Origin: Dehalococcoidales bacterium
Lineage (GTDB): Bacteria; Chloroflexota; Dehalococcoidia; Dehalococcoidales; RBG-16-60-22
NCBI GenBank assembly: GCA_034429595.1
Contig: DAOUGB010000068.1
Span: forward strand, 11,067 to 75,066
Length of the DNA: 64,000 nucleotides
Direction of reading: 5' to 3'
This document shows positions 11,957-27,711 of this stretch, in pieces; positions within the stretch are counted from its first letter, which is position 1, and each line of letters starts with the position of its first letter. The translations under genes were made by a program, and so were the position numbers. The notes beneath the pieces were generated by a model, which did no database searches, was not told the DNA's origin, and saw nothing but the letters and a program-made list of their open reading frames with translations.

Positions 11957-12958
11957 ATGCAAAACGACCTAGTTCCCCCCGGCCTTACTTACCTGGCAGA
12001 TAATATTCTTACCCGCCAGAATATTCTTGGCGTTACCAAGGAGCAGGGCGCGCGCTGGGCGCAAAAACTCGCCTTGCCCAAAACCGCCGGTACGGTATTT
12101 TTTGCCGGCTGCGGCTACCAGTATTCCGCCCAGCTGGAAGTGCTGATGTCCATGGCCAGGGCTACGGATAAAAGTGTTATCGGGTCAGAGTTCACGATGC
12201 GTTTTGCCCGCTTCCAGAAGAAACTCGGCCTCAATCTGCCCGGTATTTACAGTAACGTGCTGGCCCGCGGCGGCGAGGATGAGGTCAAGCCGCTGGAAGC
12301 CGCGGTAAAAGTGCTGCGCAAGATAGGCCTGCAGCCCGGCTACCTGGCGGAAAACGAGCCCTGCTGCGGTGCGGCGCTTAACCATGCCGGTTTCCGGGAT
12401 AAGTTCGCGGAGAACGCCCGGCGGGCCTACGGTACGTTAAAATCCGCCGGGGTCAAGCAGGTAATAGGCATCGTCCCCTACTGCACCCACGCGCTGAAAA
12501 AACTCTTCCCGCTTTATGTTGATGGCTACGATATCGAGGTAAACCATTTTATCGAAATCGTGGCCGGTAAGATTTCCCTGTTCAAAATGAAGTACCCGGA
12601 GAAGGTACGCGTGACCTATCACGACCCCTGCCAGCTGGTACGTTTTATGAACCTGATTGAAGAACCCCGCCGCATCCTGAAGGCTATCGAAAATATCGAG
12701 CTGGTGGAAACGGCCTGGACGCACGGCGAATTTTCTACCTGCTGCGGGGGCGGCGGCGGCTTTGAAAGCGTTTTCCCGGAACTTAGCGAGGTGCTGGCGG
12801 TCAACCGCGCTGCCGAACTGATGGAAACGAAGCCGGATATCATCGTGACGCACTGCCCCGGCTGCATCATGCAGCTTAAAGAAGGGCTGAAGAAACTGAA
12901 AATCGAAGGCGTACAGGTGCTGGACCTGGCGCAGGTCGTGGCGGCGGCCATAGAATAA
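11957..12958 (+). CDS. (Fe-S)-binding CCG-domain protein, LutA/GlcF C-terminal-like
   Basis: It has two cysteine-rich CCG-type regions (FFAGCGYQY; HDPCQLVR...TCCGGGGG...THCPGC). The track start at 11864 lies inside the terminator hairpin, so the start was set at the ATG at 11957. Confidence 0.75.
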   Translation: MQNDLVPPGLTYLADNILTRQNILGVTKEQGARWAQKLALPKTAGTVFFAGCGYQYSAQLEVLMSMARATDKSVIGSEFTMRFARFQKKLGLNLPGIYSNVLARGGEDEVKPLEAAVKVLRKIGLQPGYLAENEPCCGAALNHAGFRDKFAENARRAYGTLKSAGVKQVIGIVPYCTHALKKLFPLYVDGYDIEVNHFIEIVAGKISLFKMKYPEKVRVTYHDPCQLVRFMNLIEEPRRILKAIENIELVETAWTHGEFSTCCGGGGGFESVFPELSEVLAVNRAAELMETKPDIIVTHCPGCIMQLKEGLKKLKIEGVQVLDLAQVVAAAIE

Positions 12959-16785: not shown

Positions 16786-17457
16786 TTGGCTAAACATCAA
16801 TACTACGACGTTTCTTTACCCCTGAACAAGGAAATACCCGTATTAGGCCCGGCGGCATCGCCTCCCGGCACTGAAAACAAGATCCCTGTGTCAACGGTCT
16901 CCCGGTTTTATGACGTGGAAAAGGGCGATAAAGTGACCATGTCCCGTATTGAAATGATATCTCACGACGGCACGCATCTGGATGCCCCGCTCCACTTCAT
17001 CCCCGGCGGTAATACCATCGACAAAATGCCGATAGAAACGACGGTGGGCCCCTGCCGCGTTATCGAGATTAAAGACGAAAAAGAAATCACGGTCAAGGAG
17101 CTGGAGCCATATAAAATCAAAGCCGGTGAACGCATTCTTTTTAAGACCAAAAACTCCCCCGGCGTCTACGCCGTCCGCCAGTACGCCGGCCAATACGTCG
17201 CCGTGTCCCTGGCAGCGGCTGAATATCTGGTGGCTAAAAAAATCAGGCTGGTGGGGCTGGACTATCTTACCATCGCTAACATGGACCCGCCGGAGAATAT
17301 CAACGATGTCCACAAGGCTTTTCTCACCAACGGCATCTATATCCTGGAAGCCATCAACATGGACGGCATCAAGCCCGGCAAATATGAGCTGTTGTGTCTG
17401 CCCATCCGCATCGAAAAAGGCGACGCCGGCCCGTGCCGGGTGATTTTGAAGAAATAA
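16786..17457 (+). CDS. cyclase-family protein, paralogue 2
   Basis: Same length and motif (SHDGTHLDAPLHF). It is roughly two-thirds identical to the upstream gene by eye. Confidence 0.8.
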   Translation: MAKHQYYDVSLPLNKEIPVLGPAASPPGTENKIPVSTVSRFYDVEKGDKVTMSRIEMISHDGTHLDAPLHFIPGGNTIDKMPIETTVGPCRVIEIKDEKEITVKELEPYKIKAGERILFKTKNSPGVYAVRQYAGQYVAVSLAAAEYLVAKKIRLVGLDYLTIANMDPPENINDVHKAFLTNGIYILEAINMDGIKPGKYELLCLPIRIEKGDAGPCRVILKK

Positions 17458-19834: not shown

Positions 19835-20650
19835 ATGACAAACAGCGCAGACCACATACCCAGTCTGGGCGAGGCGGTAACGCTTTACCTGGGCAAGCTA
19901 ACGGTAAAAAACCGCGAAGAAAGCCAGCCGGAGGTCTATAAATTTGCGCGGTGGTGCGGATGGGAGGGGTCTTTCTCAAAGCTGGCCGGTCCTGCCGTAG
20001 CAGGATACGCCGAGACGATTAATATTTCCGATATCGACTACGAAAAAAAGTTCAGTATTCTGCGGGCTTTTCTCGCCCACGCTAAGAAAGCCGGGTGGAG
20101 CCAGACCAATCTGGCAACCCACCTGAAATCCAAGAAGGGCAAAGCCGGGCCAGTGATGAAAGCCACGGCTAAAAATACCCAGCCGGAAACCATTGCTCTA
20201 ACGCAGCAGCGCTATAATGAAATGCAGGCAGAACTGGTAACCCTTAAAAAGAGAAGCACCGAGCTGGTTGGTGAAATCCAGCGTGCCGCTGCGGATAAAG
20301 ACTTCCGGGAGAATGCGCCGCTAGCCGCGGCCAGGGAGGAACGGGGGCATGTTGAGGGAAGGATTAAAGAGCTGGAACAGGCCTTGAAATCCGCCACTAT
20401 TATCCAGGAAAACAAAGGTCCTGCCCGCAAATCAACCATCGGGAACTGCATATTGGTCTGCGATCTGGCTTCCAACGAGGAATGCCGTTATACACTCGTC
20501 GACCGCCGTGAAGTAAATGTTGCCAAGGGCAAGATATCCATAGAATCGCCGCTTGGTAAAGCACTCCTGGGGAGGAACGACGGAGACACGGTAGAAATTA
20601 ACGTGCCGGCGGGCAAGTTGCGTTATCAGATAAAAAAAATCGAACGCTAG
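19835..20650 (+). CDS. greA: GreA-family transcript cleavage factor with about 120-aa N-terminal extension
   Basis: The C-terminal 150 aa form a GreA coiled coil with an acidic tip (DKDFRENAPLAAAREE) plus a globular domain (SIESPLGKALLGRNDGDTVEINVPAG). The N-terminal 120 aa are unassigned. Confidence 0.75.
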   Translation: MTNSADHIPSLGEAVTLYLGKLTVKNREESQPEVYKFARWCGWEGSFSKLAGPAVAGYAETINISDIDYEKKFSILRAFLAHAKKAGWSQTNLATHLKSKKGKAGPVMKATAKNTQPETIALTQQRYNEMQAELVTLKKRSTELVGEIQRAAADKDFRENAPLAAAREERGHVEGRIKELEQALKSATIIQENKGPARKSTIGNCILVCDLASNEECRYTLVDRREVNVAKGKISIESPLGKALLGRNDGDTVEINVPAGKLRYQIKKIER

Positions 20651-20681: not shown

Positions 20682-20757
20682 GGGGATATAGCTCAGCCGG
20701 GAGAGCGCTGCGTTCGCATCGCAGAGGTCGGGGGTTCGAATCCCCCTATCTCCACCA
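20682..20757 (+). tRNA. tRNA-Ala (anticodon CGC), CCA encoded
   Basis: The 76-nt cloverleaf was folded by eye. The acceptor GGGGATA/TATCTCC contains the G3:U70 alanine identity pair. The anticodon stem is ctgcg/cgcag with loop ttCGCat. The T-arm is gggggttcgaatccccc. Confidence 0.9.
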
Positions 20758-20811
20758 GTTAACTGGTAAAACCCGGGTAAAACCAGCTGCTTCCATTTAC
20801 CAATGACCGAG

Positions 20812-21747
20812 TTATCTCATAAATGAGTATTGGCTATTATTGTTAAAGAACCCGTTACGAGATAACGAACTCAAGACCCTTTGTTGCTTGGACGGCTGTA
20901 CAGGATTAGGATTTGCCACCAGGTATAAGTCATTGGGCGGATTCCACCAAGTTCTTGGTTGACTTGAATCATTCATGTGAAGACGCCGCCATACACTCAA
21001 CATTTCAGGGAGGGGAAGAGAGTTGTCCTTTATCACGTCAGGGAGATCATGACAACAGAAAGTGGAAGTCGGCCAGCCCCTAGACGTGAGTCGGTGTTGT
21101 AAAGACGCCAAGAGGTCGGCCTTTGCGTCAGGCTCGATTACTAAAATCATCTTGGACTCTTGCTCTTCATAGTCACCAAGCGCAGCCAGTAAAGGACTCC
21201 AGTCGTCAAAGCCATATGGGAAGCAAGCAGAAAAGACGACCAAATCATAGGTCGCGAAGCTTATAATGTTCTTTGCCAAGTCTATAATTGAGCCTTGTCT
21301 ATATGAAGTCGAGACACGGCGCCAACAGTCAGAACATTCGGAGAAAAGGATCATTTCCGGGCTTGGCTCGATTCCCATGAGGCTGACATGTTGAGGGAAA
21401 TCCAGTAAATCCACTGCGATGGCTGTCGCTCCGGTTCCACTTCCAATATCAAGTACCGACTCCGGATACCAGCCATCAAGCACGGAAAGTAATGATCCGA
21501 AAATAGAAACGATGCGCCTTGGCATATACTTGAGAGCGTAAACGAGAGGAAGGCCCGGCATACTATAATCAGGTTCTCTACCTAATCTTAACTCGTCTAG
21601 CTCATCACCTAGCTTCTGTGTATTGATAGGTATCCGACGTATGGCAAGTTTGCGCAAGTAGCTAAGCGCCGCTTCTGCAACTGCTTTATCTAGCCTTTCA
21701 TGGAGTCGCCGCCATTCGTAATTACTAAGGGTATCAAGTGTAAGCAT
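20812..21747 (-). CDS. class I SAM-dependent methyltransferase (Rsm22-like layout)
   Basis: 311 aa. It has a SAM-binding motif I (VLDIGSGTGATAIAV) preceded by LVYALKYMPRR. The region is visibly AT-richer than its flanks. Confidence 0.6.
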   Translation of the reverse strand: MLTLDTLSNYEWRRLHERLDKAVAEAALSYLRKLAIRRIPINTQKLGDELDELRLGREPDYSMPGLPLVYALKYMPRRIVSIFGSLLSVLDGWYPESVLDIGSGTGATAIAVDLLDFPQHVSLMGIEPSPEMILFSECSDCWRRVSTSYRQGSIIDLAKNIISFATYDLVVFSACFPYGFDDWSPLLAALGDYEEQESKMILVIEPDAKADLLASLQHRLTSRGWPTSTFCCHDLPDVIKDNSLPLPEMLSVWRRLHMNDSSQPRTWWNPPNDLYLVANPNPVQPSKQQRVLSSLSRNGFFNNNSQYSFMR

Positions 21748-22101
21748 TCGTCTTCACCGCCTTAACTGAATTTTTATCAACAAATAATAGAACATATGTT
21801 CTTCCAATTAAGGCTTAGTATAACCTGTTCCACTTCGAAAGTCAACACATTGTTGTCACTATTTTTATTCACACCTTGAACATTATTCGAAAATCACTGC
21901 CATACCTGCTTTCCGATATTATTCAAGGCTGGAAGCATCTTACCTAGCTGGTTATCTACCAGATTTGAAACCAGATGTTTAATGGCTTAGTCAACCATAG
22001 AGTGTATATTTTGTATCAATTCAAAAGGTGACTTGTAATTTTCAAGTATATAAGGTAGACTAGGTTTCAGAACAATAGTTCTTACTGGAAGAAGCAACGA
22101 A

Positions 22102-23277
22102 ATGTCTTACGCTGAACAATTGGACCTACTTGGACAACGAGCGTTCACGCCCTCGTTACCAACAGAATACAAACCCGTTCGCTCTGCCCACTTTCAGCCG
22201 TCGCAGATTTGTTTAGCCAAAGGTAGTATGACCACATACGAACGTAGGTCATTTGTCAAACGTATCTGCGATCTCTACCCGGAAGCGCAGGTGAAAGAAC
22301 GGTTTGACGTGCCTCATAACCAGATAGAATTGGGCGGACAAGAGCCTTTGAGTCTGCATCGCACCGGGAAACAAACGCTTGTGTTCGGTGAGCTTACATC
22401 GGCGGTGCGTTTTGCCGAAGAGAGGGGAAATGCCTGCCCCAACTATTGGCATTTTTCTCCTTATGGATTCTGCCCGTATGATTGCAAGTACTGTTACCTG
22501 GCCGGGACGCCAGGAGTCAAGTTCTCTCCTTCGGTCAAGATATACGTGAACTTACCTGAAATGCTGCAACGTATCGATGTCATTGCACGGAAACTTGCTA
22601 CGCCAACGGCATTCTACCTCGGAAAGCTACAAGATTCCCTGGCACTAGACTCTCTCACAGCTTACACAACAATCCTGGTGCCTTTCTTTGCCGAGCATCC
22701 CTGGGCACGTCTTACACTTCTAACGAAGAGCGCTTACATTGACCGGCTGTTGGATTTAGACCATCGCGGGCACTCTATCCTTTCATGGAGCGTGAACCCG
22801 CCGGAAATATCGGCTTTCTTTGAGGAAAACGTCCCCAGCATCGATGAACGTCTAGAGGCCATGCGCCGTGTTTCTGATCGCGGTTACCCTGTGCGCGCTA
22901 TCATGATGCCTATTATCCCCATTGACGGCTGGCAAGATAGGTATAGCGCATTCACGACGCACTTGCTTAAGACTGTACCCATTCAGCGTTTAACCCTCGG
23001 CGGTATCTGTATTTACCGAAGCGCTCGCGACCTTATGGAGACAAAGATGGGGGTACGGAACGTAGTGTCGGGGCACATCGACCATGTATCTCCCAAAGCA
23101 GAAGACGGGAGGGCGCGCTATCCTCGCAGTTTCCGCCACGAAGCCTACTCGCTGATTATCCAGTCCGTGCGAAAACTTCGCCCGGACCTGGGCATTGCTC
23201 TTTGTCTGGAGGAACAAGAGCTTTGGGAAAGTACCGGGCTCGCAGGAAACATAGGACGGTGTAATTGCCTCTTGTAA
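22102..23277 (+). CDS. radical SAM protein, spore-photoproduct-lyase / DNA-photolyase (COG1533)-like, copy 1
   Basis: 391 aa. It has a CxxxCxxC motif (CPYDCKYCYLAG), a TIM-barrel-like remainder and a C-terminal GRCNCLL. Confidence 0.7.
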   Translation: MSYAEQLDLLGQRAFTPSLPTEYKPVRSAHFQPSQICLAKGSMTTYERRSFVKRICDLYPEAQVKERFDVPHNQIELGGQEPLSLHRTGKQTLVFGELTSAVRFAEERGNACPNYWHFSPYGFCPYDCKYCYLAGTPGVKFSPSVKIYVNLPEMLQRIDVIARKLATPTAFYLGKLQDSLALDSLTAYTTILVPFFAEHPWARLTLLTKSAYIDRLLDLDHRGHSILSWSVNPPEISAFFEENVPSIDERLEAMRRVSDRGYPVRAIMMPIIPIDGWQDRYSAFTTHLLKTVPIQRLTLGGICIYRSARDLMETKMGVRNVVSGHIDHVSPKAEDGRARYPRSFRHEAYSLIIQSVRKLRPDLGIALCLEEQELWESTGLAGNIGRCNCLL

Positions 23278-23584
23278 AGAAGAGGATGCATTTGCTAAAT
23301 GCCAGCTAAGCGCCACAGGAGGAGGATCGAATTCCCCATCCAAGAGAGGTTGTAAGGGATTTACTATCGGATTATCCGGCTCTTTATTACTGAACATTCT
23401 GTTAAAAAAGTCAAGTAAACTGCCGGACAATAAAAGTTAAAAATTAATAAGCCAACATGATTGCCCGGGTACGGCCTGTTTTACACTAAAACGGACTTAA
23501 GATAGAGTTTGGAAAAGCCCCCAGGGTTAACAGATTTTTAGCAGCTTGACTCTATAGCCCAGGAAGATTAGCACCCTACATGCT

Positions 23585-23665
23585 AAGGATGAATTCCAGT
23601 TTAAAAGTTCTGCCTATTGACACCCCTTCCCCACCAAGTCTGGTAAAACCCTCGGTAAAACTGAC
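23585..23665. repeat. degenerate copy of the tRNA-Ala 3' end plus its downstream flank (att-like)
   Basis: ccccttccccaccaagtctggtaaaaccctcggtaaaac compares with tRNA/flank ccccctatctccaccagttaactggtaaaacccgggtaaaac. Its 5' part (aattccagtttaaaagttctgcctattgac) matches the 56-bp repeats at 27576 and 51721. Confidence 0.55.
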
Positions 23666-23670
23666 CTCAA

Positions 23671-24075
23671 TTAAGCTTTCTTAATGGCTTTCTTTGGCTT
23701 TGCCTCGAAGAGTTTTACTACCCGCTCTTTTAAATAGCGCTGAACGTAAGAATTAACCGTTCCATCAGGGTAAATAATACGATTCCCGATAAGCAGTTTC
23801 ATCTTTTTCGCCAAAACGTAATCAGCGACTGAAATATCTGCTTTTTCCTTTAATTCAACAAGGGAAAATATAGTATTTTCCCAAAGCCATTCCCAAACCT
23901 CTCTTTCAGAACAAGCGGTAAGTTCGGTTGGTTTTTCTGCCTGTTTTATATCAAGTAAAGTCCATGTGATAATTATCTTAATAAGTTCAGGGCTATCCGC
24001 TATCAAGAGGACTACTTCAGGCTTTTCATCCTGTTTGAAATAATTTAGTTTTTCAGCAAATATAGCTTCAGACAT
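23671..24075 (-). CDS. hypothetical protein (134 aa), last gene of the islet-2 operon
   Basis: ORF only, with no recognisable motif. Its start lies 3 nt after the stop codon of the preceding gene. Confidence 0.4.
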   Translation of the reverse strand: MSEAIFAEKLNYFKQDEKPEVVLLIADSPELIKIIITWTLLDIKQAEKPTELTACSEREVWEWLWENTIFSLVELKEKADISVADYVLAKKMKLLIGNRIIYPDGTVNSYVQRYLKERVVKLFEAKPKKAIKKA

Positions 24076-24084
24076 ATCTAGTCC

Positions 24085-25250
24085 TCACAAAACGCAGTTA
24101 CAATGCCCTTGATTGGTTTCAATTCCGCTATTTCTCCACAAAGCTTCTTCTTCAAGACATAAAGCAATTTTAAGGTTAGGCCGGTGTTTTTTAGCGACTG
24201 CAATGATATGACGATACATCTTGGTTCTAAGCGAGGCAGAGTAGCGGTTTCTGCCATCTGGCGATCCAATCTTTCCATGTTTATTGATATCGAATTATGG
24301 GAACCCATCTTTACTTCCATTAATGCCCGCGCAACTTTGTAGCTACATATACCGCCAAGAGTAAGCCGTTGTAAAGGTATGGCCTCAACCAAGTGCCTTG
24401 TGAACGAGGAGTAAATATTTCGCCATCCGGCAACAGGAATAATAGGCATCATGATTGCACGTATATGATAACCTGCTGAAGCCGCCTTAAGCATCGCTTC
24501 CAAACGTTCTTCAATGCCTGGCACATTCTCCTCAAATACACTGCTTATCTCCGGCGGATTTACACTCCACGATAAAATAGAATGTCCTTTATGTTTGAGC
24601 CCTAACAACCGGTCGACATTAGTACTTTTTGTGAGTAAGGTTAGACGTGCGTAGGGATGTTCTGCAAAAAATGGAACCATTACGCTGGAGTAAGCCGTTA
24701 ATGGATCAAGTGCTAAAGAATCCTGGAGTTTCCCTAAATAGAAAGCGGCAGGTTTCTGCAAGCGTTGGGCAATCTGGCCTATCTCCTCCAAAATCTCTGG
24801 CAGGTTCACGTATATTTTGACTGTTGGAGAGAACTTTACTCCTTGAGTGCCGGCAAGGAAACAGTATTTACAGCCATACGGACAGAAACCGTAAGGCGAG
24901 AAATGCCAATAGTTGGGACAGGTGTTACCTGACTCTTCGCTAAAGCGTACGGCTGTTTTCAACTCACCAAAAACCAAGGTGCTTTTGCCGGCTCGATGTA
25001 GCGCAAGCGGTTCTTTATCTGGTAACTCAATGCGATTGTGAGGAGTATCAAGGCGTTCATTAATTTCCACTTCAGGGTAGAGTTTGCAGATACCTTCCAC
25101 AAATGCCCGGCGTTCCGGTGTAGAGATACTTCCTTTTGCCAGGTAAATACGGGAAACCTGAAAATAATCCGGGCGAACAGGAGTATAGTAGGTAGGAAGA
25201 ACAACCTTCGAATTTGTAAAAAGGCTAATTTGAGAGTCATTGTTTTTCAT
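24085..25250 (-). pseudogene. SPL-like radical SAM gene, copy 2, with frameshift near 24263-24268
   Basis: About two-thirds identical by eye to copy 1 over about 330 aa (CPYGCKYCFLAG). The track frame then diverges. A different frame reads SPDGRNRYSASLRTKMYRHIIAVAKKHRPNLKIALCLEEEALWRNSGIETNQGHCNCVL*, which aligns with the copy-1 C-terminus. Confidence 0.7.
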
Positions 25251-26332
25251 GGATTCCTAACCGCCTTATTTCCGGTCAAATTCTCCCAACGTTTTACGAT
25301 TATATCGCAATAAGCGGGATTCATCTCCATTAAAAATGCTTTTCTTGATGCTTTTTCAGCAGCAATCAATGTCGTACCTGAACCTCCAAAAGGTTCGAAA
25401 ATTTTATCTCCGCTACCACTATATGCCTGCATTGAGCGATAAGGAATTTCAACAGGGCAAACTGCAGGATGCCCGAATATTTTCATTTGATTGGTCACAG
25501 CGGGTATTTCCCAAACATCGGTATGGTATTTTGCCATATAATCTCGACCCTCTCGCGTCATCTTTGGCATATCGCCCGTTTTCTGATAGACTAATAACGC
25601 TTCCCATTCGAATGCGGGATAATAACATGAATTACGCTGGATATGAAAGTTCCTTGGGGTCGCGTAATTCGCGGCCGTCTTTTTCCAAATGATATTATCG
25701 AGAAACTGGAACCCAATTTCTTCAAAAAGTCTTGAGTGATGACTTACGTGGTTATGATGAGTAGTACATCCATTGCCTATGTTCCACACACAAACGCCCC
25801 CATTTTTAAGAGTAGCGTGGCAATTCCGGATAATTTTCTGCATATCTTCAAGATAAGCTGAATAATCTTTCCAATGCGAGTAGATTTTTTGGTTAAAATA
25901 TGGGGGACTGATCAAGTTCAGGTATTATGTTCTCATCTTCGTTATCATCTATGATAAATCTTCTTATTTCCTCATCGCTGAATCCCATACTTTTAATATC
26001 TATATCCTCTGACCGTAATTCTTCTAAAATTTCCCTAAGCTTTGGGAAGTCCCAATCGGCAATTTCAGCGGTTTTATTATCGGCAATAGCAAAGGCTTTC
26101 CGCTTGGCATCTGTCATTTCAGTAATGATTACAGGGACTTTCTCCAAGCCAAGCCTCTGCGCGGCTTTCCAGCGCGTATGGCCGGCTATAATAGTCATGT
26201 TCTGGTCACAGAGAATAGGAGCATTAAAACCATGCTTTCTGCGACCGCATCCACAGCCTGGTCGTTTATTCTAGGATTTTCCTCCCAGGGATTTAACTTA
26301 TCTGTTTCTATCTCTCGAATCTGAAGCATCAT
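25247..26332 (-). pseudogene. ParB-like nuclease domain :: N4/N6 DNA methyltransferase, split into three frames
   Basis: Frame a reads MMLQIREIETDKLNPWEENPRINDQAVDAVAES. Frame b reads HGFNAPILCDQNMTIIAGHTRWKAAQRLGLEKVPV (ParB N-terminal domain). Frame c reads LISPPYFNQ...FEPFGGSGTTLIAAE (SPPY and FxGxG methyltransferase motifs). Its stop codon overlaps the start of SPL-like copy 2 (ATGA). Confidence 0.7.
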
Positions 26333-26361
26333 TATTTCTCTTCTATAATTAATCACCAAAC

Positions 26362-27372
26362 CTAAAGCAAACTTGGCTGGTTGCTATATTCCGGCCACTC
26401 TCCTGTAATATTGCATCTACCACCGATATCAGGATTCATACATCCGCAAACGGATAAATTTATGTCATATTTTTCAGCCACATGCCTGAAATGAGCATAT
26501 ATTTCTTCTCTCTTTGATAGTGGTAAAGGAATAATGGAAGAATGTTCAGCATACACTATTAAGCGCCCTTCGCTTTTATAATAAGCTAATAATTCCCCCA
26601 ACATTTTATTATCAGCTATACGCCGTTTCAAAGAGGCGACAATAGCCGGCCTCAAGAAAAGCGTGCTTATAGCGGCACGTTTTACTCCGGTATTCGCTAT
26701 CGCTCTTAACAATTTCTCGATTGAGCCAGGTTTATCGGTGATACCGGGGATAATAGGAATAATGCGTGCCTCTGTAACTATCCCGCCTTCAACAAGCCTC
26801 GCCATTTGTTCGAGGCGTGCGCTCGTGCTCGCAGCGTTTGGTTCAAATACGCACCGTATGCCTTCATCCACCGTAATTATTCCTATCTGTATCCTTACAT
26901 AATCAGCATGAGCCAAAAGGAACTTGATAGTCTTTTCGGGAATATAGCCTTTAGTGAGAATTGCGACGCCTACGCCTCTGGATAGTAAATATTCCAATAT
27001 AGAGAGACTAAGTTCTATCACATCTGAAACGGGTTGGAAAATATCACTTGATGGACTGAAATATACCGCTTGAGGTTTAATTCGTTTACTTGAAAGTTCA
27101 CCTTTTATTTTATCCAGCGTATTTTCATAAACAACAACTTTGTTTCCTCCGGGGAAAACACTGTACCCGCGTGCATAACAATAGAGGCAATCATGGGCGC
27201 ATCCTGCGGTAAGATTGACCGCTGGAATATGAGCCAAGCAAGCTAGACTTGACGATGAAAGAACAGTAGATTTACGCTTGGTTTTAATAATACTTACTAT
27301 GGACATCATATAATCTGGATAAGAACGTTTGTTCGGTTTACATATTATAGCATCCAATTTTGCGGGACGCAA
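26362..27372 (-). CDS. radical SAM protein, COG1533 'DNA repair photolyase'-like, third paralogue class
   Basis: It has the motif CAHDCLYCYARG. It runs about 300 aa from the internal ATG at 27309. The track start at 27372 is a TTG. Confidence 0.7.
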   Translation of the reverse strand: MRPAKLDAIICKPNKRSYPDYMMSIVSIIKTKRKSTVLSSSSLACLAHIPAVNLTAGCAHDCLYCYARGYSVFPGGNKVVVYENTLDKIKGELSSKRIKPQAVYFSPSSDIFQPVSDVIELSLSILEYLLSRGVGVAILTKGYIPEKTIKFLLAHADYVRIQIGIITVDEGIRCVFEPNAASTSARLEQMARLVEGGIVTEARIIPIIPGITDKPGSIEKLLRAIANTGVKRAAISTLFLRPAIVASLKRRIADNKMLGELLAYYKSEGRLIVYAEHSSIIPLPLSKREEIYAHFRHVAEKYDINLSVCGCMNPDIGGRCNITGEWPEYSNQPSLL

Positions 27373-27575
27373 GATATATTGGTCACCAATTATGACAGCC
27401 TTAAGGCATAAAGCGGAACAATATAGGATGAGTTTTACAATTTAACCAACATGGTAAAACCGCAGCCAGGTTCCCCGGAGTTATCTTAATCATGTGATTT
27501 TTTATAAGTCCACGTATTATTAAAGATATAGCAAACAATAATTCCCCGCATAAGCAATAGAGAGCTATTCAGTTT

Positions 27576-27631
27576 TGAGGCTAAATTCAAGCTCAAAAAT
27601 TCTGCCTGTTACCACCCTATCTCCACCAAAG
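27576..27631. repeat. 56-bp direct repeat, left boundary of the eCIS block
   Basis: tgaggctaaattcaagctcaaaaattctgcctgttaccaccctatctccaccaaag differs at 3 positions from 51721-51776. It ends with 14 nt identical to the tRNA-Ala 3' end (ccctatctccacca). Confidence 0.8.
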
Positions 27632-27711
27632 GGTATCAATAGGCAAAAAGCATTTACAAGCAACATTAATATCAAGAGGACGGCCTCTCCTGATTACTTT
27701 TGCTGTTCCAA

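Follow-up and report, generated by a model that had tools for sequence, protein, structure and literature searches.

What function is served by placing radical S-adenosylmethionine (SAM) enzymes of the spore photoproduct lyase (SPL) type next to methyltransferases, in small islets behind a tRNA gene? The question is raised by a 64-kb stretch of the genome of a Dehalococcoidales bacterium (contig DAOUGB010000068.1 of GenBank assembly GCA_034429595.1), referred to below as the window; all coordinates are those of this whole stretch. An initial annotation, made from the nucleotide sequence, had described six open reading frames (ORFs) here as a candidate DNA-modification, repair or defence module. 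All six are present where it placed them, as are the motifs CPYDCKYCYLAG and CAHDCLYCYARG, and its family labels agree with Pfam and NCBIfam: SPL (PF20903), N6_N4_Mtase, ParB_N, a PA0069/Rv2578c-like radical SAM protein and a weak Rsm22/class-I methyltransferase match. The genes lie in two adjoining islets, the first carrying a methyltransferase (MT311) and an SPL-fold radical SAM enzyme (SPL391), the second a paralogue of SPL391, a ParB-methyltransferase, a further radical SAM gene (rSAM336) and a small protein, u134. At this locus a small mobile cassette lacking an integrase has been acquired twice, independently, and its two copies stand integrated in tandem. We favour, with confidence that is about evenly balanced, the reading that this cassette is a mobile, SOS-induced radical SAM module which acts on DNA bases together with a methyltransferase-type partner.

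SplB is the textbook radical SAM DNA-repair enzyme, and in a PDB search using a profile of 67 members of the SPL391 family SP lyase was the sole match. The AlphaFold2 model of SPL391 (predicted local distance difference test score, pLDDT, 89.9) gave a Foldseek TM score of 0.84 to the Geobacillus thermodenitrificans SplB structure 4FHC over ∼347 columns, the full SplB length. SPL391 shares with the G. thermodenitrificans enzyme (4FHC–4FHG) the overall fold, the N-terminal alpha/beta domain, the CX3CX2C cluster motif and equivalents of Tyr96 and Tyr98, with ∼30% identity over residues 53–294. In the profile alignment SPL391 residue 57/58 falls on SplB residue 26–28; the N-terminal extension of about 110 residues that had been ascribed to the SPL-like proteins is mostly SplB's own N-terminal domain, SPL391 differing by ∼30 extra N-terminal and 23 extra C-terminal residues. 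Both SPL-like proteins score below the 400-bit cutoff of the SplB equivalog model TIGR04070 (SPL391, 122.7 bits; paralogue, 127.2 bits). The expectation that they would not cluster with SplB was therefore borne out by the hidden Markov model comparison (123 bits against 400), as well as by replacement of Cys141 and of the lesion contacts.

These replacements concern residues of known role. In G. thermodenitrificans SPL, R193, E268 and Y339 contact the dihydrothymine, R273 and K309 contact the phosphate, Cys140/141 is the H-atom donor and Tyr98 is a proposed radical relay (PMC3467042). The tyrosine pair beside the cluster is kept in SPL391 as Y130, which is invariant, and Y132, which is at least 90% conserved, the segment C-K-Y130-C-Y132-L aligning to C-H-Y-C-Y-L of SplB. 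At the position of the H-atom donor (Cys141 in Bacillus subtilis, Cys140 in G. thermodenitrificans) the family has an invariant lysine, K175. The three dihydrothymine contacts Arg193, Glu268 and the C-terminal Tyr339 correspond to S228, G300 and L367/C368, respectively, and the phosphate contact Arg273 falls in a gap. Beyond the radical SAM cysteines, C112, C303, C368, C387 and C389 are invariant in the 67 family members, and a sixth, C56, reaches at least 90% conservation. Of these, C303 and C368 fall, in the alignment, at the place of the former SP-lesion pocket. SplB ends at about residue 369 of SPL391, and the family's 23-residue tail finishes with C387-N-C389; this CNC motif had been noted as common to both SPL-like proteins of the window, which holds for the family as a whole, although in the paralogue it stands in another frame. 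Given that C303 and C368 lie at the old pocket, these two cysteines, possibly completed by C387 and C389 of the tail, probably form a second metal or iron–sulfur (Fe–S) site in or near it. The alternative H-donor of Clostridium SPL, Cys77, sits in a loop where the alignment is gapped and uncertain; the invariant C112 is placed in this loop, a few residues away from the Ser76/Cys77 position. Judged from these alignments, the SPL391 family has SPL architecture with a predicted different active site, and is a distinct clade rather than SplB.

This clade is large and strongly conserved, and apparently uncharacterised. Homologues of SPL391 number more than 1,900; identity to it is 70–88% in the best 120, nearly all of which are ∼391 aa long. 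A scan with one genome per species found 248 stretches encoding SPL391 relatives; the best 80 of these span, by record titles, at least six phyla (Chloroflexota/Dehalococcoidia, Planctomycetota, Bacillota, Actinomycetota, Armatimonadota and Deltaproteobacteria). The hosts are non-sporulating anaerobes of digesters, groundwater and sediments. An origin of the family in phages or plasmids was considered and rejected: one IMG/VR contig carries a relative, 50,697 phage and 72,556 plasmid records hold no close match, and the plasmid matches to SPL391 are true SplB at ∼30% identity. BFVD contains no close structural relative of SPL391 (best TM score 0.55), and literature searches found no paper on the SPL391 family or the cassette.

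We studied the gene neighbourhoods of the same best 80 of 248 stretches by calling, clustering and mapping their ORFs, with counts of related loci taken over 79 species-level genomes. Where at least 1.5 kb was available on both sides of the SPL-like gene (57 loci), a methyltransferase was present in 29, other partners only in 11 and no partner in 17. A Pfam tally of the 132 immediate neighbours was headed by N6_N4_Mtase (19), ParB_N (12), DUF523 (10), class-I methyltransferases (8), Eco57I/N6_Mtase (6) and Radical_SAM (6), every other listed family occurring a single time. Three arrangements recur. In type A, MT311 is divergent from the SPL-like gene, as in islet 1 and in 11 other genomes; in type B, represented by islet 2 and about 20 loci, a ParB-methyltransferase is followed by the SPL-like gene and then u134; and in type C, found in nine Planctomycetota loci, the SPL-like gene precedes an Eco57I/TaqI_C-type N6-adenine methylase of ∼790 aa. 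A DUF523/TudS protein is present in 14 loci and a second, PA0069-like radical SAM protein in 12–14. Besides these two, u134 and the three methyltransferase classes, no immediate neighbour recurs in the 79 genomes. On the tree of SPL-like proteins the MT311 clade is nested within a ParB-methyltransferase grade and the Eco57I-linked loci form another clade, so that partner class tracks the tree and has been exchanged at least twice.

The systematic linkage to methyltransferases foreseen by the initial annotation is thus found across the related genomes, in three recurrent methyltransferase classes, and by that annotation's own neighbourhood test the two enzymes behave as a functional couple would. 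Within the window itself the linkage holds for SPL391 and its paralogue; rSAM336, which had been counted with them, has no methyltransferase of its own. The proposed defence-island context found no support. Flanks vary between loci, the few recurring flank families being ordinary metabolic genes, and no nuclease family recurs among the 132 neighbours. PADLOC has no model for SPL391 or u134 and recognizes only methyltransferases among the neighbours. In one locus, the single case of its kind, a XamI-type restriction endonuclease (PF09572, 5e-97) adjoins the SPL-like gene.

The partners share a further feature. The D, N or S of canonical motif IV in DNA amino-methyltransferases holds the target amino group. 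Motif IV instead reads F-(G/A/S)-G-P-P-Y (GPPY) in all 16 scorable ParB-methyltransferases of the related loci and G-(G/A)-P-P-F in all eight Eco57I-like partners; both classes lack the canonical polar residue and keep motif I, the SAM site. Among 142 representative ParB-methyltransferases at large, the position is D in 71, S in 68 and G in three, and two of the G cases (P0124 and P0129) are within the ten best matches. Two unrelated methyltransferase classes appear to have converged on the same motif IV change when coupled to an SPL-like enzyme, which suggests that the partner may be no ordinary amino-methyltransferase; its role may instead be that of a reader that flips bases, or its methylation may be directed at a different atom. 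MT311 itself has DIGSGTG as motif I and CFPY where motif IV would stand. The MT311 family also has a conserved C-terminal W-W-N-P-P-(D/N)-D (residues 267–273), well past the Rossmann fold, that resembles an NPPY-type motif in an unusual position.

All three promoters of the cassettes in the window carry the palindrome GAAC-N4-GTTC, which we take to be the Gram-positive LexA (Cheo) box; the LexA of Dehalococcoides reportedly uses this box. The motif occurs four times in the window, against 0.82 expected, and three of these sites are at the cassette promoters; the fourth lies inside an acetyl-CoA synthetase gene. Of the 30 related Chloroflexota loci, 18 have a box with no more than one mismatch in the 100 nt that precede the first cassette gene (∼1 expected). 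Over the related loci in general, exact intergenic boxes are almost confined to cassette promoters. Because the boxes are also present in type A loci, which have no u134, a host factor must bind them. In several phyla the SOS regulon is known to include COG1533 'SplB' radical SAM genes, and a LexA peak has been mapped at Rv2578c by chromatin immunoprecipitation (PMC8565304, PMC3381160). At the level of the motif, the boxes point to a DNA-damage response rather than to a constitutive restriction or anti-restriction mark. Outside Chloroflexota, a palindrome search yielded a Pirellulales lineage-specific element only: nine loci (L037, L044, L045, L052, L055, L058, L060, L069 and L071) share the conserved element AGAAATTTCTTGAAATTTGAGG, ∼118–166 nt upstream of the SPL-like gene, which may be a lineage-specific promoter or operator in place of the LexA box.

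Features of the two islets and their surroundings (window coordinates).
Feature	Position	Strand	Remarks
tRNA-Ala(CGC)	20682..20757	+	ARAGORN
attL core, last 14 nt of tRNA-Ala (CCCTATCTCCACCA)	20744-20757	+	Repeat family D1
Islet 1, intact, without integrase	20758..23636		Begins with CTGGTAAAACCCGGGTAAAAC; three-way alignment of the tRNA end, middle and right copies; G+C 0.47
MT311, class-I SAM methyltransferase	20812..21747	-	Weak Rsm22 match (best Pfam, 8e-5); weak PADLOC mad2 match
LexA-type box 1 (aGAACATATGTTCt)	21790..21801		43 nt upstream of MT311 start
LexA-type box 2 (aGAACAATAGTTCt)	22070..22081		20 nt upstream of SPL391 ATG
SPL391, intact SPL-fold radical SAM enzyme, 391 aa	22102..23277	+	PF20903 1e-34; radical SAM cysteines C124/C128/C131
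Middle att-like copy (degenerate pseudo tRNA 3' end)	23603..23636	+	Right end of islet 1, junction with islet 2
Islet 2, second related element, without integrase	23637..27628		G+C 0.42; terminated by exact 14-nt copy of tRNA 3' end
u134, intact 134-aa cassette-specific protein, helical	23671..24075	-	No Pfam family; aligns end to end with relatives
SPL-like paralogue, pseudogene	24085..25250 (ORF 24078-25250)	-	PF20903 1e-34; 1-nt deletion at 24264/24265
ParB-N6/N4 DNA methyltransferase, pseudogene	25247..26332	-	10-nt deletion near 26232; ∼130 nt gone at 25899-25908
rSAM336, intact PA0069/Rv2578c-like radical SAM protein	26362..27309 (ORF to 27372)	-	End-to-end alignment with relatives
LexA-type box 3 (- strand: cGAACAAACGTTCt)	27323..27334		Between TTGCGT-17-TATAAT promoter and rSAM336 ATG 27309
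attR, exact 14-nt repeat of tRNA-Ala 3' end	27615..27628	+	Repeat family D1 and three-way alignment

The att repeats at tRNA-Ala confirm that the islets are mobile DNA, as had been suggested. The three-way alignment showed that ∼34 nt resembling the tRNA 3' end are found both in the middle copy and at 27595–27628, and an identical 22-nt sequence, CTGGTAAAACCC..GGTAAAAC, follows the tRNA (20762–20785) as well as the middle copy (23639–23660). These att-like copies and shared element starts demonstrate that the region consists of two related elements, inserted successively. Islet 1 has a G+C content of 0.47, intermediate between that of islet 2 and the 0.50–0.56 of the flanks. The non-coding gaps (20758–20815, 23270–23680 and 27373–27715) hold no remnants of cassette genes, and no RNA run containing the region was found. 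Contigs of the same element, at ∼99% identity, are present in an independent soil metagenome (run X2). One X2 contig joint, 20746 to 23603, was considered as an allele lacking islet 1 and was rejected, since one of its sides has just 22 nt and its two ends are mutual repeats; contigs of another run, X3, break at 23604–23606. The islets sit between tRNA-Ala and an extracellular contractile injection system (eCIS) operon, whose tape-measure gene (PF19268, 4e-107; 27712–31317) directly adjoins islet 2 on the right. The gene that immediately precedes the tRNA-Ala integration site (19835–20650) encodes a GreA homologue with a ∼120-aa N-terminal region of no assigned family.

The same targets are used elsewhere. 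In 23 of the 79 related loci the cassette has a tRNA or tmRNA gene no more than 1.2 kb away, and exact 16-nt repeats of a tRNA or tmRNA 3' end bracket it in L011, L021 and L049; the integration targets of the cassette are tRNA and tmRNA 3' ends. In L049 (8254–17201) the 16-nt tRNA-Pro 3' end recurs at 12042 and again at 17201, which indicates a second island after the cassette. L054 (2079–6461) carries the tmRNA gene twice, 4 kb apart, beside the cassette. In L056 the interval between tRNA-Asn and the cassette contains a short ORF (1410–1799) that faintly matches GIY-YIG, just downstream of the 16-nt tRNA-end repeat at 1603.

Islet 1 is intact and islet 2 is decaying, its methyltransferase and SPL genes broken and half of it pseudogenes. 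The ParB-methyltransferase, which had been read as an intact fusion, is split across three frames, as three-frame translation revealed: its ORF pieces span 25247–26198, with the N6_N4 DNA methylase domain at 25247–25915 and the C-terminal half of the ParB N-terminal domain at 25893–26198. Alignment with relatives placed the 10-nt deletion, and comparison with the 99%-identical strain revealed the loss of ∼130 nt. The remnant keeps motif I (EPFGGSGTT), and intact proteins with both ParB_N and methyltransferase domains are seen in relatives, for example in L027 (407 aa). Its motif IV reads SPPY, for which we considered and then withdrew an explanation as a deletion-junction artefact, since SPPY is the actual reading of the window and SPPC occurs in a relative. 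The SPL paralogue has its true C terminus, ...GHCNCVL, in a different frame, which ends at the authentic stop codon, 24085–24087. In the X2 strain one extra base behind 24264 restores the frame of the paralogue, as read from the DNA, and ∼130 extra nt between 25899 and 25908 supply the missing start of the methyltransferase domain; the 10-nt deletion is common to X2 and the window. In this lineage the methyltransferase therefore broke first, and the SPL paralogue later, in the window's strain. The window is reproduced without a difference in the separate Logan assembly of the sample from which it probably came (X1, depth 15); although not independent evidence, this speaks against an error peculiar to one assembler.

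The remaining islet 2 genes could be placed with similar detail. The overlap of stop and start codons that had been described for the whole operon is real at the junction of methyltransferase and SPL paralogue (ATGA, 25247–25250); the other junctions are gaps of 9 and 29 nt. The start of rSAM336 is probably the ATG at 27309, giving 315 aa, and not the TTG at 27372. Searches with u134 returned no Pfam or PADLOC family, and Foldseek E values were above 1, with a faint winged-helix likeness at most. SPL391 and the paralogue are 68% identical over 311 aa and belong to separate subclades of the SPL tree; they did not arise by a recent duplication.

From the observed anatomy, conservation, neighbourhood, operator motifs, mobility and decay of the cassette we infer both DNA as the substrate and the type of reaction. 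DNA damage would cause SOS induction of the cassette operons, which in Chloroflexota lie behind LexA-type operators. The SAM-binding, methyltransferase-type partner would then find and flip the target base, on which the SPL-fold enzyme would carry out oxygen-independent radical chemistry, most likely to reverse or process a lesion or an alkyl mark. The protein u134, DUF523/TudS and the PA0069-like radical SAM enzyme would act as optional helpers. That the cassette processes a lesion or an alkyl mark seems to us more likely than that it sets a protective mark constitutively, because expression is predicted to be damage-gated, conservation across phyla is extreme and transfer functions are absent. 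In its most specific form, which we put forward tentatively and consider unlikely, the proposal would be that in strict anaerobes an oxygen-independent pair erases or rewrites a DNA base mark under SOS control: a methyltransferase-derived reader, having Gly or Ala where motif IV normally has its catalytic D/N/S, would flip the base, and the SPL-fold enzyme, with an auxiliary Fe–S cluster at the site where SplB holds dihydrothymine, would perform radical oxidative dealkylation, as an anaerobic counterpart of AlkB or TET, or radical sulfur insertion.

The serious rival to a damage-induced module is a DNA hypermodification system or epigenetic writer, in which the methyltransferase sets a methyl mark and the SPL-like enzyme converts this mark or a neighbouring base into a complex protective or labelling mark, possibly by radical sulfur insertion with S-methylation or by C-alkylation. 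We regard it as doubtful, though it accounts for the obligate-looking operon coupling with three methyltransferase classes, and fusions with ParB are characteristic of mobile DNA-modification modules. There are precedents, in that ParB activates phage thymine dioxygenases (PMC13229309) and the SPL-like radical SAM protein gp53 of phage M6 installs a DNA hypermodification (PMC8989533), and sulfur chemistry would be in keeping with the additional Cys4 site and with DUF523/TudS as a partner. A self-protecting mark, however, needs constitutive expression, yet the operons sit behind LexA-type operators; genes for transfer, replication or packaging are missing from the cassette, members of the family are almost never found in the IMG/VR, phage and plasmid records, and none of the kinase, glycosyl or PLP (pyridoxal phosphate) genes of known hypermodification pathways is found among the 132 neighbours.

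We rate three other explanations lower still. That the radical SAM enzyme is a restriction-like or abortive effector, damaging DNA that lacks the partner's methylation upon SOS induction or phage attack, seems very unlikely to us. A methyltransferase and a second enzyme carried as small islets at varied chromosomal sites, with methyltransferase classes swapped, is a pattern typical of restriction–modification, and one locus does have the adjacent XamI-type endonuclease; but an SPL-like protein 54–88% identical across phyla is conserved beyond usual restriction enzymes, most partner methyltransferases lack the canonical catalytic residue, and PADLOC models and defence neighbours are wanting. 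Moreover, many loci have no methyltransferase at all, which would be lethal for a toxin, and the X2 strain carries the 10-nt deletion in its ParB-methyltransferase while its SPL paralogue is free of the 1-nt deletion. It is about as improbable, and a little more so than the effector, that SPL391 is an ordinary SP lyase or photoproduct repair enzyme merely beside orphan methyltransferases. SplB is its closest solved structure and closest named family, the tyrosine pair is kept, C112 falls, by an uncertain alignment, in the loop that carries the Clostridium donor, and SOS control suits a repair enzyme. Against this stand the TIGR04070 score far below the cutoff, the replaced dihydrothymine and phosphate residues, hosts that do not sporulate, and a linkage with three unrelated methyltransferase classes beyond a chance neighbourhood. 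An RNA target (tRNA or rRNA), on which the enzyme might repair or remove a base carrying a modification or cross-link (4-thiouridine, s4U, for example), has equally little to commend it: the best Pfam match of MT311 is to an RNA methyltransferase family and DUF523/TudS relatives desulfurate thiouracil, but of the three partner classes two are DNA methyltransferases, the first having a DNA-binding ParB domain and the second a TaqI_C specificity domain, the SPL fold belongs to an enzyme that flips DNA lesions, and LexA control favours DNA.

Several observations nevertheless weigh against a damage-induced module that acts on DNA bases with a methyltransferase-type partner. LexA binding to the boxes is predicted from the motif, and in loci of Planctomycetota and of other phyla outside Chloroflexota LexA-like boxes were not found and showed no enrichment. 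With the SPL-like gene alone in 17 of the 57 complete loci, the partner is optional, and glycine in motif IV is not universal, the window's ParB-methyltransferase remnant having SPPY and its close relative P0121 having SPPC. The Cys4 site could be a structural zinc. Some weight, if little, stays with an RNA target, given the likeness of MT311 to RNA methyltransferases (Rsm22) and the DUF523 relatives that act on thio-uracil, and a writer of DNA marks would fit a methyltransferase-coupled mobile cassette too.

The clade joins an SPL-fold enzyme to DNA-methyltransferase-type partners, LexA-type operators and movement by tRNA islets across phyla. MT311 with SPL391, both intact in the window, is a concrete two-gene unit for the study of DNA base repair or editing in strict anaerobes, independent of oxygen-requiring enzymes such as AlkB or TET. 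Should the chemistry be new, the cassette would represent a new class of DNA transaction; should SPL391 be a lesion lyase, SOS-regulated COG1533 genes would at last have a function.

The cassette would extend two known themes, the action of SPL-type radical SAM enzymes on DNA and the SOS-regulated COG1533 genes that have no assigned function. With regard to SplB, the SPL391 family differs not only in its predicted active site but also in context, having no splA partner, being linked to methyltransferases and residing on tRNA islets of non-sporulating hosts. The nearest relatives of rSAM336 are the PA0069 (NF033668) and Rv2578c (NF038135) families, to which it scores 101.9 and 93.7 bits, below the respective cutoffs of 360 and 430; SPL391 scores merely 21.5 and 32.3 bits. 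These families resemble rSAM336 in regulation, in that COG1533 genes are LexA-regulated in several phyla (PMC8565304, PMC3381160) and rSAM336 has, at the motif level, a LexA-type box directly before it, and differ in that rSAM336 is cargo of a mobile cassette, shared with a methyltransferase and an enzyme of the SPL clade. A precedent for SPL-like action on DNA beyond SP repair is gp53 of phage M6, an SPL-like radical SAM isomerase in the hypermodification of thymidine (PMC8989533); it belongs, however, to a phage cluster of a 5-hydroxymethyldeoxyuridine (5-hmdU) kinase, aGPT-Pplase and PLP decarboxylase, none of which is among the 132 cassette neighbours. The phage thymine dioxygenases of the 5mYOX/ParB systems (PMC13229309) likewise couple a protein with a ParB N-terminal domain to an enzyme that acts on DNA bases after replication. 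There the enzyme is a dioxygenase dependent on O2 and 2-oxoglutarate, in contrast to the anaerobic radical SAM enzyme of the cassette, in which ParB is fused to a methyltransferase-type domain and the genes lie on a chromosomal islet behind LexA-type boxes rather than on a phage.

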